From positions 1-63,736 of the forward strand of contig JAGBES010000025.1 in assembly GCA_017936845.1 (NCBI GenBank): 63,736 nt of DNA, read 5' to 3'. Position 1 is the stretch's first letter; each line of letters starts with the position of its first letter. The notes beneath the pieces were generated by a model. It was given only the letters and a program-made list of their open reading frames with translations, searched no databases and was not told where the DNA came from. The DNA is from Bacilli bacterium. GTDB lineage: Bacteria > Bacillota_I > Bacilli_A > RF39 > UBA660. Made by a program: the position numbers and the translations under genes. Shown here piece by piece: positions 38,707 to 41,042 of this stretch.

Positions 38707-39609
38707 ATGTTTAAAGTATTAAAGGAAAAAATAAAAGATTTGTTAATTAAATCTCAAAGAAAATTAATATTTGAAGAAGCTGCTAATGGCTATATTGGTG
38801 ATTATAAAATACAAGATGATAAAGTAATATGTTATGTAGATAATAAATTGTTAAAAAAATATATGGAAAAAAATCATTATAAATTAGAATTATGTGGTTC
38901 TTATACAATGGAAGAAAAATTAAAAAAAATATGTGATGATTGTGGGATTTTAAAACCAATTTATTATATTATAGATGGAATGGAATTTGCTTCTTATGTA
39001 TATATTTTTTCTGTTAGGGATGCACATATAATTTTTAAAAATTGTACTTTCAAAAATGCTATTAAAATATATTTTGCTAATGATATAATATTTGAAAATA
39101 ATAAATATGAATATCCTTATCCATCAAAAGACTATGCATTTTTAACAAGTAATGGGCCTACCTATAATATAAAATTTATTAATGATAATTTTATAAATAG
39201 TAATAAAAAACATCCAGTAAAATTTGGAATGGAGATTAAAGCTAATAATGTAGAAATAAGTGATACAAATATTAGTGGTGATGATAATTCATTAGTACAA
39301 ATTGAATGTGATAATTTAGTAATTGGAAATTCTAATATAAATTGTGATGAAATAGTTATAAGTTCAAAAAAAATAAATTTTTACGATGCATCAACAAATG
39401 CAAATAAAGGCTTTATAATGAATAAAGATACAATGTATATAGATTTTGATCAAGAAAATAGAAAAGAAAAAGAATTAGAAAATTCAAGAATTAATTTAAT
39501 TAATTCATTAAGAAATTTAAGAGATAAATGTAATCAAGATATAGAAAATAAATTAGAAAATAAAGAAAATAAATTGAAAAATAAGAAAATAAAGAAGTAT
39601 TTTAAATAA
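38707..39609 (+). CDS. hypothetical protein (possible beta-helix region, C-terminal coiled coil, basic tail)
   Basis: TTGACA..TATAAT promoter, GGGGG SD; IIFKNCTF/IIFENN/VEISDTNI repeats; ends KIKKYFK. Confidence 0.7.
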   Translation: MFKVLKEKIKDLLIKSQRKLIFEEAANGYIGDYKIQDDKVICYVDNKLLKKYMEKNHYKLELCGSYTMEEKLKKICDDCGILKPIYYIIDGMEFASYVYIFSVRDAHIIFKNCTFKNAIKIYFANDIIFENNKYEYPYPSKDYAFLTSNGPTYNIKFINDNFINSNKKHPVKFGMEIKANNVEISDTNISGDDNSLVQIECDNLVIGNSNINCDEIVISSKKINFYDASTNANKGFIMNKDTMYIDFDQENRKEKELENSRINLINSLRNLRDKCNQDIENKLENKENKLKNKKIKKYFK

Positions 39610-39626
39610 CATTAAATAATATTATA

Positions 39627-39655
39627 TTGATAAAATAAGTTAAATATGATATTAT
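39627..39655 (+). promoter_or_regulatory. sigma-A promoter of putative antitoxin RNA A
   Basis: TTGATA-N17-TATTAT with extended TG; conserved in copy B. Confidence 0.75.
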
Positions 39656-39661
39656 GTATAT

Positions 39662-39777
39662 AGATGAAGTTATCTTCATAAAATAAAAAGAGGATATACT
39701 TAACTTTCGTGTGGTTAGGTACACTCCTGATTTGGTGTGCACACTAATACTCCAGCTCGAGCGTTAGTGTGCTTTTT
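39662..39777 (+). ncRNA. putative type I antitoxin RNA A (~115 nt)
   Basis: Promoter, 5' hairpin ATGAAG-ttat-CTTCAT, terminator GCACACTAA..TTAGTGTGC-TTTTT abutting the stop codon of the opposite-strand peptide. Confidence 0.65.
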
Positions 39778-39855
39778 CTATTTAAATATTATTACAAATA
39801 CTAATATAAATAGGAGGATAATTATAATAAATTGAGAATTTTCTCTTTTTGTCAT
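39778..39855 (-). CDS. 25-aa hydrophobic peptide A, putative type I toxin (MTKRENSQFIIIILLFILVFVIIFK)
   Basis: AAAGGAGGTGAT SD in a hairpin; own TTGTGT-N17-TATAAT promoter; paralogue at 40830-40907. Confidence 0.78.
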   Translation of the reverse strand: MTKRENSQFIIIILLFILVFVIIFK

Positions 39856-39921
39856 AAATATCACCTCCTTTATTTTTTTATAAAGGAGTGCACCTAACGC
39901 AGGTTATGTATATCCACTAAT

Positions 39922-39950
39922 ATTATAAAAAACAAATGTTTGATACACAA
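39922..39950 (-). promoter_or_regulatory. sigma-A promoter of peptide A mRNA
   Basis: TTGTGT-N17-TATAAT; predicted +1 near 39915, the first base of the long-range helix. Confidence 0.65.
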
Positions 39951-39967
39951 CAGTTTAGGAGTAATTT

Positions 39968-40678
39968 ATGGAAAAAATAGATAAATTAAAAGAAATAATA
40001 AAAAGTAGTAATAATATAGTTTTCTTTGGAGGAGCTGGTGTTTCTACAGAAAGTGGTATACCAGATTTTAGAAGTAAAGATGGTCTTTATAATCAAAAAT
40101 ATGATTATCCTCCAGAAGAAATATTAAGTCATACTTTCTTTTATTATAATACAGAATACTTTTATAAATTTTATAAAGATAAAATGAATAGTCTAAGTAT
40201 TAAACCTAATATAACACATTTAAAATTAAAAGAATTAGAAAAAAATGGTAAATTAAGATGCATTATAACTCAAAATATAGATGGATTAGATATAAAAGCA
40301 GGTAGTAAAAATGTACTTGAAATACATGGTTCAATTTATAGAAACTATTGTACTAAATGTAATAAATTTTATGATGCAGAATATGTTTTTAAAAGTAATG
40401 GAATACCTTTATGTGAATGTGGTGGAATAATAAAACCAGATGTAGTTTTATATGAAGAGCCATTAAATAATACATTTGATGAAGCTATAAATTATATTAG
40501 AAAATGTGATACATTAATAGTTGCTGGTACATCTTTAACAGTTTATCCAGCTGCTTCTTTAATAAGATATTTTAATGGAAAAAATTTAATTTTAATAAAT
40601 AAAGATAAAACTAAATATGATGATTTTGCTACATTGGTGTTTAATCAAAATATGAGTGAAATATTTAAAGAATTATAG
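39968..40678 (+). CDS. cobB: NAD-dependent protein deacylase (sirtuin)
   Basis: GAGVSTESGIPDFRS, TQNIDGL, HGS, CxxC/CxC zinc site, GTSL.VYPAA. Confidence 0.95.
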   Translation: MEKIDKLKEIIKSSNNIVFFGGAGVSTESGIPDFRSKDGLYNQKYDYPPEEILSHTFFYYNTEYFYKFYKDKMNSLSIKPNITHLKLKELEKNGKLRCIITQNIDGLDIKAGSKNVLEIHGSIYRNYCTKCNKFYDAEYVFKSNGIPLCECGGIIKPDVVLYEEPLNNTFDEAINYIRKCDTLIVAGTSLTVYPAASLIRYFNGKNLILINKDKTKYDDFATLVFNQNMSEIFKEL

Positions 40679-40680
40679 TG

Positions 40681-40709
40681 TTGATAAAATATTTAAAATA
40701 TGATATTAT
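40681..40709 (+). promoter_or_regulatory. sigma-A promoter of putative antitoxin RNA B
   Basis: TTGATA-N17-TATTAT with extended TG. Confidence 0.75.
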
Positions 40710-40715
40710 GTATAT

Positions 40716-40828
40716 AGATGAAGCCTTCTTCATAAAATAAAAAAGGATACATTTGACTCTCTGAATCAGATGTTATCCCTTATTGGATTGGCATCTGAAA
40801 TCACAAAGTTGTGAAATCAGATGTTTTT
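40716..40828 (+). ncRNA. putative type I antitoxin RNA B (~113 nt)
   Basis: 5' hairpin ATGAAG-cctt-CTTCAT, terminator GCATCTGA..TCAGATGT-TTTT next to the peptide B stop. Confidence 0.65.
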
Positions 40829-40829
40829 A

Positions 40830-40907
40830 TTATCTATATAGTAAGGTGATTACTATAAAAAATAATAGTATAATTATGATAAATTGAGTTAATTCTCTTT
40901 TTATCAT
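40830..40907 (-). CDS. 25-aa hydrophobic peptide B, putative type I toxin (MIKRELTQFIIIILLFFIVITLLYR)
   Basis: GATGGTGAT SD; same length as peptide A and 14/25 identical. Confidence 0.78.
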   Translation of the reverse strand: MIKRELTQFIIIILLFFIVITLLYR

Positions 40908-41042
40908 AAATATCACCATCTTTCTTTTTCAAGAAAAGGAAAACTTCTGATATTTCAAATGTATCCATTAATATTTATCAAACAAAAATTCGTAAAACAA
41001 TATTTTGATATTAATTTATTAAAAATTTAAAGGAGTAAAAAT

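Follow-up and report, generated by a model that had tools for sequence, protein, structure and literature searches.

Candidate type I toxin-antitoxin cassettes on both sides of a cobB-like gene in an uncultured gut Bacilli genome

Toxin-antitoxin (TA) systems of type I are hard to find because their peptides are tiny and their antitoxins are RNAs, and published surveys, in the excerpts used here, record them from few phyla only (PMC12390103). In the part of PMC8594479 that deals with Gram-positive bacteria, all type I families have the antisense RNA at the 3' side of the toxin gene. According to the same part, this RNA overlaps the 3' end of the open reading frame (ORF) too in TxpA/RatA, BsrG/SR4 and their relatives, and only Fst/RNAII and SprA1/SprA1as spare the ORF, effective pairing in these two lying outside the short overlap (PMC8594479). 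As described in excerpts of PMC6733600, a hallmark of type I toxin mRNAs is the occlusion of the Shine-Dalgarno sequence (SD) by nearby anti-SD sequences, and in hok and aapA a long-distance interaction of the 5' end with the 3' end keeps the full-length mRNA inert until its 3' processing. Here, we analysed a 63,736-nucleotide (nt) stretch of DNA from an uncultured Bacilli bacterium (contig JAGBES010000025.1 of assembly GCA_017936845.1; hereafter the window), in which each of the two intergenic regions around a cobB-like gene holds a small cassette with a predicted antisense small RNA (sRNA) and a peptide ORF on opposite strands. An earlier note on this DNA had proposed a new type I TA family here. 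We consider it likely that each cassette is a type I TA module of an undescribed family, with predicted transcripts and a presumed toxin.

The cobB-like gene, a member of the Sir2 family, lies at 39968-40678 (SIR2 match in Pfam, E 5.4e-52). The intergenic regions that flank it, 39610-39967 and 40679-41042, align with 80% mean column identity over 383 columns and, judged from this alignment, the two gaps are paralogous cassettes of ~350 nt. The earlier note had described one layout for both gaps, and every element that it described, including the TTGATA-N17-TATTAT promoters, was found at its position (Table 1). The sRNA -10 element and the bases downstream of it are conserved in all six copies of the genome (see below) and also in a wider set of genomes. 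The note had also described a ~115-nt RNA with a 5' hairpin, an A-rich linker and a terminator. These parts are present in the predicted folds of both sRNAs, but a middle hairpin had been overlooked: each fold consists of a 6-base-pair (bp) 5' hairpin (HP1), the linker AAAAUAAAAA, a second hairpin (HP2) and a terminator hairpin followed by a U run. None of 200 shuffled sequences was as stable as sRNA-1, and the same was found for sRNA-2. The predicted RNA does stop at the stop codon of the opposite ORF, as had been said, since each T run shares 2 nt with that codon. An RNA of ~116 nt opposite the mRNA 3' untranslated region (UTR) is predicted from the conserved promoter, the folds and the terminator.

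On the other strand, small hydrophobic peptide ORFs (shorter than ~60 amino acids, aa) with an SD of their own, as looked for in type I systems, were found for both transmembrane peptides of the window. The two peptides are identical at 14 of 25 positions when counted by eye, which agrees with the earlier count. An ORF listing begins the frames further upstream, at GTG/ATG codons, which gives lengths of 28 and 29 aa, the GTG sitting within the SD; the 25-aa start is preferred because of the SD spacing and because homologues begin there. The putative promoter of mRNA-1 was not called in the promoter scan, its -35 element matching at 3/6 positions, and its spacer motif CAAACATTTGTT is found again in other copies. 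The 3' UTR of mRNA-1 is the complement of sRNA-1, and its predicted terminator is the complement of HP2 followed by UUUUUAUUUU, the complement of the A-rich linker, which forms a U run. Because a U run follows the complement of HP2 but not that of the sRNA terminator, mRNA-1 should run to ~39680. With these predicted ends, the sRNA is complementary to the whole ~90-nt mRNA 3' UTR and leaves the ORF uncovered.

Table 1. Predicted features of the two window cassettes and of the other copies in the genome. c1 to c6, cassette copies; C2, C4 and C29, contigs of the assembly; MFE, minimum free energy; z, z-score.
Feature	Position	Strand	Length or sequence	Remarks
sRNA-1 promoter	39627-39655	+	TTGATA, 17 nt, TATTAT	TG upstream of -10; promoter scan, 10/12 matches
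sRNA-1	39662-39779	+	118 nt	MFE -35.7 kcal/mol, z -3.88; predicted start site and 3' end
sRNA-1 HP1	39664-39679	+		
sRNA-1 A-rich linker	39680-39690	+		
sRNA-1 HP2	39691-39728	+		
sRNA-1 terminator hairpin	39739-39772	+		
sRNA-1 T run	39773-39779	+		
ORF-1 (c1)	39778-39855	-	25 aa and stop; MTKRENSQFIIIILLFILVFVIIFK	SD GGAGG at 39868-39864; intact; frame kept in homologues
mRNA-1	39680-39915 (ends predicted)	-	~235 nt	MFE -68.3 kcal/mol, z -8.71
mRNA-1 promoter (putative)	39922-39950	-	TTGTGT, 17 nt, TATAAT	read by eye
sRNA-2 promoter	40681-40709	+	TTGATA, 17 nt, TATTAT	TG upstream; promoter scan, 10/12 matches
sRNA-2	40716-40831	+	116 nt	predicted; MFE -32.4 kcal/mol, z -3.76
sRNA-2 HP1	40718-40733	+		
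sRNA-2 linker		+		
sRNA-2 HP2	40745-40778	+		
sRNA-2 terminator hairpin	40790-40825	+		
sRNA-2 T run	to 40831	+		
ORF-2 (c2)	40830-40907	-	25 aa and stop; MIKRELTQFIIIILLFFIVITLLYR	intact; close homologues: c3 of own genome, one same-genus genome
mRNA-2	40734-40963	-	~230 nt	predicted; MFE -63.8 kcal/mol, z -8.99; 5'-3' long-range pairing; SD sequestered
c3 peptide	contig C2		MTK-stop-EISQFIVILLLFFIVITLLYR	in-frame TGA
c4 peptide	contig C2		MNKRVYNIKLCRYICIILSLITLLVFVIKK	intact
c5 peptide	contig C29		MNKKDILIFS-stop-VITILLLILLLLIVLI	in-frame TAA
c6 peptide	contig C4		MKKKDLLISFLILIIILLIVSLMILCVKK	intact

For either mRNA, 0/200 shuffles were as stable as the predicted fold, and in both folds base pairs join the extreme 5' end to the 3' UTR. 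This pairing arises because the sequence of sRNA HP2 recurs, inverted and imperfectly, at the mRNA 5' end; a third related version of it makes up the sRNA terminator. On these folds the SD is occluded, as in type I toxin mRNAs: an anti-SD inside the ORF pairs with it (GGAGG-CCUCC in copy 1, GGUGAU-AUCACC in copy 2), and a second anti-SD lies in the 5' UTR upstream of the SD, where a local hairpin (39888-39865) is possible in mRNA-1.

The genome assembly has 1.12 Mb in 34 contigs, with 23.3% GC and 88% completeness. BLAST of cassette 1 against it gave six cassette loci with E <= 1.5e-8, the next match falling in coding sequence, and our count of six rests on this search. The six copies align end to end and show one layout throughout. 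The shape of the sRNA is alike in 6/6 copies despite differing HP2 and terminator sequences, and the MFE fold of the mRNA pairs the 5' end with the 3' UTR in 6/6. The sRNA could also pair with the mRNA 5' UTR in all six (-22 to -34 kcal/mol), to which we give little weight as these energies have no control. c3 and c4 flank one EamA-type transporter gene, as c1 and c2 flank cobB. In c3 (MTK, stop, EISQF...) and c5 (MNKKDILIFS, stop), in-frame stops stand opposite an intact sRNA side. These are real nonsense codons because the genome uses the standard code: under code 11, TGA terminates 104/966 long frames. Code 4, in which TGA is a sense codon, was considered for c3 and rejected, because coding would exceed 100%. 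A gene for RNase III is also present in the genome (231.6 bits).

The motif formed by the sRNA -10 element, HP1 and linker was found in at least 119 stretches in a scan of one genome per prokaryotic species. Nearly all of these are labelled as uncultured gut Bacilli, Tenericutes or Erysipelotrichaceae; the few other labels are unconfirmed. Within the order of the window, the exact motif occurs in 40/401 genomes and 28/146 genera, and all but one of the 400 other genomes belong to one family. A class sample gave the exact motif in 2/34 genomes of the window's own family and in 0/266 genomes from 28 other families, and a reversed-pattern control had no match in the 401 genomes of the order set or the 301 of the class set. 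These counts are lower bounds because only 2/6 own-genome cassettes match the exact motif. The HP1 variant of the window was found in 2/6 other genomes of the genus and 0/34 further relatives. As far as these scans go, the cassette family appears to be found only in the window's own family, uncultured gut Bacilli with small genomes. Six copies in one genome, the motif in at least 119 stretches elsewhere and a reversed-pattern control of 0 argue that the cassettes are more than chance.

The listed matches to the exact motif formed the wider set: 119 loci gave 129 motif matches, 12 of which were cut by the end of the locus, leaving 117 full cassettes. Strict rules (ATG start, SD, a hydrophobic run of at least 13 residues and a fixed distance from the motif) were satisfied by 82/117 of the listed full cassettes. 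With relaxed rules, the count is 92/117, the ORF being hydrophobic, preceded by an SD, 22-39 aa long and placed alike. These 92 start with ATG (87), GTG (3) or TTG (2) and have length modes of 27 and 30 aa. Their peptides fall into class A (M.KRE.SQFIIIILLF..., 25 aa), B (MKKR.F.IKVLRYI.IIL..., 30 aa), C (M.KKDFLI.SL..., 24-27 aa), C' (MKKKDLLISF..., 29 aa) and D (MRKSEKYLC..., 30 aa); in all of these classes the N-terminus is basic and there is one helix, and the other end is often basic too. Conservation of the frame in homologues, on which the earlier note had made its proposal depend, was observed: homologues from different species and of different peptide classes keep it, and variable sites at codon positions 1/2/3 number 81/47/91, position 2 being the least variable. 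Such a pattern is expected of a translated hydrophobic helix. Pairwise codon differences were 1906 synonymous versus 2547 non-synonymous, which is descriptive only as the pairs are related.

The folds are also conserved in the wider set. HP1 folds with at least 4 pairs in 112/117 listed cassettes, and its stem occurs in the versions GCAAG/CUUGC, AUGAAG/CUUCAU and AUGAG/CUCAU, compensatory changes in which both sides changed together. Compared with dinucleotide shuffles, the sRNA 3' domains of the 92 listed cassettes that bear an ORF have z-scores with a median of -4.55, 91% of them below -2, and 57 of these domains form two hairpin loops. When the 5' UTR and the 3' UTR come from one cassette, the median energy of their duplex is -35.7 kcal/mol (n=82), compared with -24.45 between cassettes (n=410), a contrast that is conservative because the non-cognate set includes close relatives. 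By these modelled energies, the 5'-3' mRNA pairing is specific to each cassette. Column-based structure counts would mislead, because the hairpins stand in different column registers among the copies, and fold conservation was judged by folds of single sequences and by cognate versus non-cognate energies. When RNAalifold was applied to six sRNAs aligned with MAFFT, it joined the 5' arm of HP2 to the 3' arm of the terminator, and this consensus was set aside.

Related genomes differ in whether the cassettes are present at this site. In one same-genus genome the order is topB, 7 nt, cobB, 11 nt and a pseudouridine synthase gene, with no cassettes between; in another, topB and cobB are separated by 8 nt. 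In a third (L148:1520-1891), cobB is missing and a single cassette, encoding MTKREQSQFIIIILLFILVFVILFK, lies between topB and the pseudouridine synthase gene. This cassette is a mosaic, with an ORF like copy 1 and sRNA hairpins like copy 2. The compact gaps of 7-11 nt at the same sites indicate that cassettes are gained or lost as whole ~350-nt units. A 300-aa ORF without a Pfam family lies between topB and cassette 1 (38707-39609, + strand); the same-genus genomes examined lack it at this site, and it may have come with the cassette. Public contigs from four DNA runs break at the cassettes, and some join 39876 to 40950 with other letters between. This joint, seen in two contigs of one run and in similar form in another, resembles the single-cassette, cobB-less arrangement of L148, but with 90% likeness, from metagenomes and maybe from another species, nothing is concluded from it.

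Short repeats and tRNA genes were observed around several cassettes. A 24-nt direct repeat, which takes in the sRNA -35 region, stands on both sides of c4 (C2:22290-22680, locus L004), and in L064:3880-3930 and L076:6010-6060 the right end of the cassette (TAGAAAAC...) repeats its own left end. Such repeats could be a scar of recombination or duplication. In 22/60 public loci (L029-L089), the sRNA -10 element is preceded on its own strand by a tRNA gene, whose end lies 38-91 nt (mostly 63-71) upstream, as in L064:3447-3640 and L076:5573-5775, and at least 10 tRNA identities are involved. In 11/14 aligned cases, a conserved segment starts at the tRNA CCA end and extends over ~68 nt; it holds a small hairpin and a terminator-like hairpin, in whose stem the sRNA -35 element lies. 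This tRNA-end hairpin motif was found in 18/157 loci and is absent from the window's genome. These positions hint at insertion of cassettes at tRNA 3' ends. In L070:3840-5400, four cassettes of mixed peptide classes stand in tandem at 367-388-nt spacing, the last without an ORF, and a glmS ribozyme lies downstream. Locus L026 of a same-genus genome (~1456-1860) has an intact sRNA promoter and hairpins, no peptide ORF opposite and a + strand gene directly after; this copy may be an orphan antitoxin. A blastn search of plasmid and phage collections gave no match to the cassette.

Database searches support the claim of novelty, in that no described family was matched in Rfam, Pfam, NCBIfam, PHROGs or the text of the literature. 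Rfam, searched to E 10, gave only two chance matches in the window, both inside cobB (E 4.4 and 9.1), and at gathering score it gave only tRNAs and one glmS ribozyme in seven other loci. Pfam, NCBIfam (E up to 10) and PHROGs yielded only sub-threshold, generic membrane-helix matches to the peptides. Of ten peptides, none was present in a collection of 15 billion proteins, and the ESM Atlas had no usable match to the peptide. A phmmer search of a 30-aa peptide against 1.84 billion representatives found one unnamed 30-aa protein (E 7.6e-4). Full-text literature on type I TA systems (Erysipelotrichaceae, Mollicutes and metagenome-assembled genomes) and on the peptide motifs held no description of the family, supplementary lists, including that of Fozo et al. 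2010, lying outside this search. Thus, the cassette family appears to be undescribed so far.

The cassettes can be compared with three groups of described systems. They resemble TxpA/RatA and BsrG/SR4 (also BsrE/SR5 and YonT) of Bacillus subtilis, as far as these are described in the excerpts, in the Gram-positive lineage, the convergent genes and the predicted position of the antisense RNA at the 3' side. The peptide is likewise a small single helix. TxpA/RatA-type systems are neutralised through a long 3' duplex and RNase III, and the same would be expected here. The earlier analogy to txpA/RatA and bsrG/SR4 therefore holds for the convergent orientation but not in detail, since the overlap here comprises the 3' UTR only: unlike in that group, the sRNA stops at the stop codon, and the peptides are shorter, mostly 22-32 aa. 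Neither RNA nor peptide shows homology to these relatives in Rfam, Pfam or NCBIfam. As in Fst/RNAII (par) and SprA1/SprA1as, in the partial account available, the antisense RNA predicted at the 3' side spares the ORF, the T run touching the stop codon only, and the sRNA can also pair with the mRNA 5' UTR, by the control-free energies given above. Unlike in these two, the overlap is the entire ~90-nt 3' UTR. A shared bidirectional terminator is unlikely here because, read on the mRNA strand, the sRNA terminator is not followed by a U run. No match to Fst/RNAII or SprA1/SprA1as was found in Pfam or NCBIfam (E up to 10) or in Rfam, databases that presumably hold models for both. With hok/Sok and AapA/IsoA, in the excerpted description, the cassettes share the closure of the mRNA between 5' and 3' ends and further anti-SD hairpins, here predicted in 6/6 cassettes. 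In those proteobacterial systems the antisense RNA targets the 5' region or ORF of the 3'-processed mRNA, whereas the predicted sRNA here lies opposite the 3' UTR, and the cassettes have no sequence similarity to them (no Pfam or NCBIfam family match). On the predicted folds, the cassettes combine the orientation of TxpA/BsrG, the ORF-sparing of Fst/SprA1 and the mRNA lock of hok/AapA, and match none of them in sequence.

How such a module would work can be proposed as follows. The - strand gene would give an mRNA of ~230 nt that codes for the presumed toxin, a membrane peptide of 25 aa with a single helix. The extreme 5' end of this mRNA would pair with the 3' UTR, and the SD would be locked by the anti-SDs in the 5' UTR and in the ORF; the full-length mRNA would therefore be poorly translatable. 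The + strand gene would give the ~116-nt sRNA, the presumed antitoxin, perfectly complementary to the ~90-nt mRNA 3' UTR, and this sRNA would cover exactly the 3' partner of the 5'-3' lock. The two 3' hairpins of the sRNA mirror hairpins of the mRNA, so that an abundant sRNA may make loop-loop contact and proceed to a ~90-bp duplex. RNase III would cleave this duplex, or else the duplex would keep the mRNA from the 3' processing or trimming needed to open the lock. We infer both transcripts and their ends, the toxicity of the peptide, its neutralisation by the sRNA and the route of decay.

What speaks for a type I TA module at the sequence level is that the frame is kept, that a predicted convergent sRNA is complementary to the whole 3' UTR and that the SD is sequestered in the predicted folds; at the level of genomes, the cassettes occur in several copies, at times in tandem, and related genomes differ in whether a given site holds one. 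In some copies, moreover, the presumed toxin is nonsense-mutated while the sRNA is intact. A conserved, translatable-looking transmembrane peptide with an antisense partner could also be a small membrane protein that is no toxin, for example a modulator of a transporter or of another membrane complex, with the sRNA as its ordinary cis-antisense regulator. Many bacterial small membrane proteins are regulators, and harm to the cell is presumed in our own reading. Such a regulator would hardly be expected in six copies with diverged peptides, in tandem arrays of mixed classes, as an sRNA copy without an ORF (L026, and listed motif matches without an ORF) or in nonsense-mutated form, nor to come and go at the same site beside unrelated genes or to carry several layers of predicted translational lock. 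These traits of copy number, arrays, nonsense codons, turnover at the same site and lock suit selfish toxin cassettes better than a housekeeping regulator, and we regard the regulator as unlikely, though worth keeping in mind. A secreted or membrane-active peptide directed against other cells, bacteriocin-like or modulin-like, with the antisense RNA as an expression switch, seems very improbable. The peptides are short, hydrophobic and cationic-ended, and one sub-threshold Pfam match is to a YxzE-like putative bacteriocin model. That match (E = 1, 10.9 bits, cut-off 40) is far below threshold, the peptides have no leader and are, by eye, uniformly hydrophobic rather than amphipathic helices, and the loci read hold no adjacent exporter, immunity or modification genes.

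Several observations weigh against the type I TA reading, and some of them would favour another reading, in which the unit under conservation is a gene for the sRNA or a mobile repeat, small and non-autonomous, and the opposite ORF is incidental to AT-rich sequence. The most conserved part of the cassette is the sRNA promoter, HP1 and linker; short direct repeats flank cassettes, and tRNA 3' ends are frequent sites. Small hydrophobic ORFs easily arise at 23% GC. The wider set was collected by the exact sRNA motif among the matches listed, so its proportions are not population estimates; in it, 25/117 cassettes fail the relaxed ORF rules. Of these 25, by eye, ~4 look intact, ~6 are broken by a stop at codon 4, by a stop where the start would be or by a frameshift, and ~15 have no hydrophobic frame at all. 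An incidental ORF is difficult to reconcile with the 92/117 listed cassettes that keep an SD-preceded ORF at a fixed distance, with the low variability of codon position 2 in a frame kept across species and peptide classes, and with the SD and anti-SD that co-vary between the window copies; we consider it improbable. Other points concern the transcripts. Promoter-like matches are not enriched in the AT-rich stretch (15 found versus 18.7 +/- 4.7 in shuffles), and the sRNA promoters are credible because they are conserved across copies, not because of their consensus match. A simple terminator scan of the stretch did not call the sRNA terminators, which therefore rest on the folds. Predicted mRNA promoters can equal the sRNA promoters in strength, so that an excess of antitoxin is not evident from the sequence.

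With the type I TA module kept as the preferred reading, a broader picture of the whole family may be sketched, which we offer tentatively and as a whole regard as possible rather than probable. The cassettes may form a lineage-restricted, mobile type I TA superfamily built on one nearly invariant antitoxin scaffold of promoter, 5' hairpin and A-rich linker. A fast-diverging specificity element might occur three times per cassette, in sRNA HP2, in the sRNA terminator and at the mRNA 5' end. These three copies might keep as many as six or more co-resident cassettes orthogonal and couple sRNA binding to the opening of the 5'-3' lock. Recombination at short repeats that flank the cassettes might carry the superfamily into minimal gaps between genes, and one subgroup might land exactly at the CCA end of many tRNA genes.

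What is new here is the family; the kind, type I toxin-antitoxin, is already well known. If our reading is true, the cassettes are a well-populated type I TA family from uncultured, genome-reduced gut Bacilli, with six copies in 1.1 Mb, and conserved sequence is flagged where the current annotation is blank. The family would offer a natural series of cassettes with a shared sRNA scaffold and differing recognition hairpins and toxin class, in which antisense specificity and orthogonality could be studied. In addition, the cassettes would be useful for testing the role of the 5'-3' mRNA lock outside Proteobacteria.

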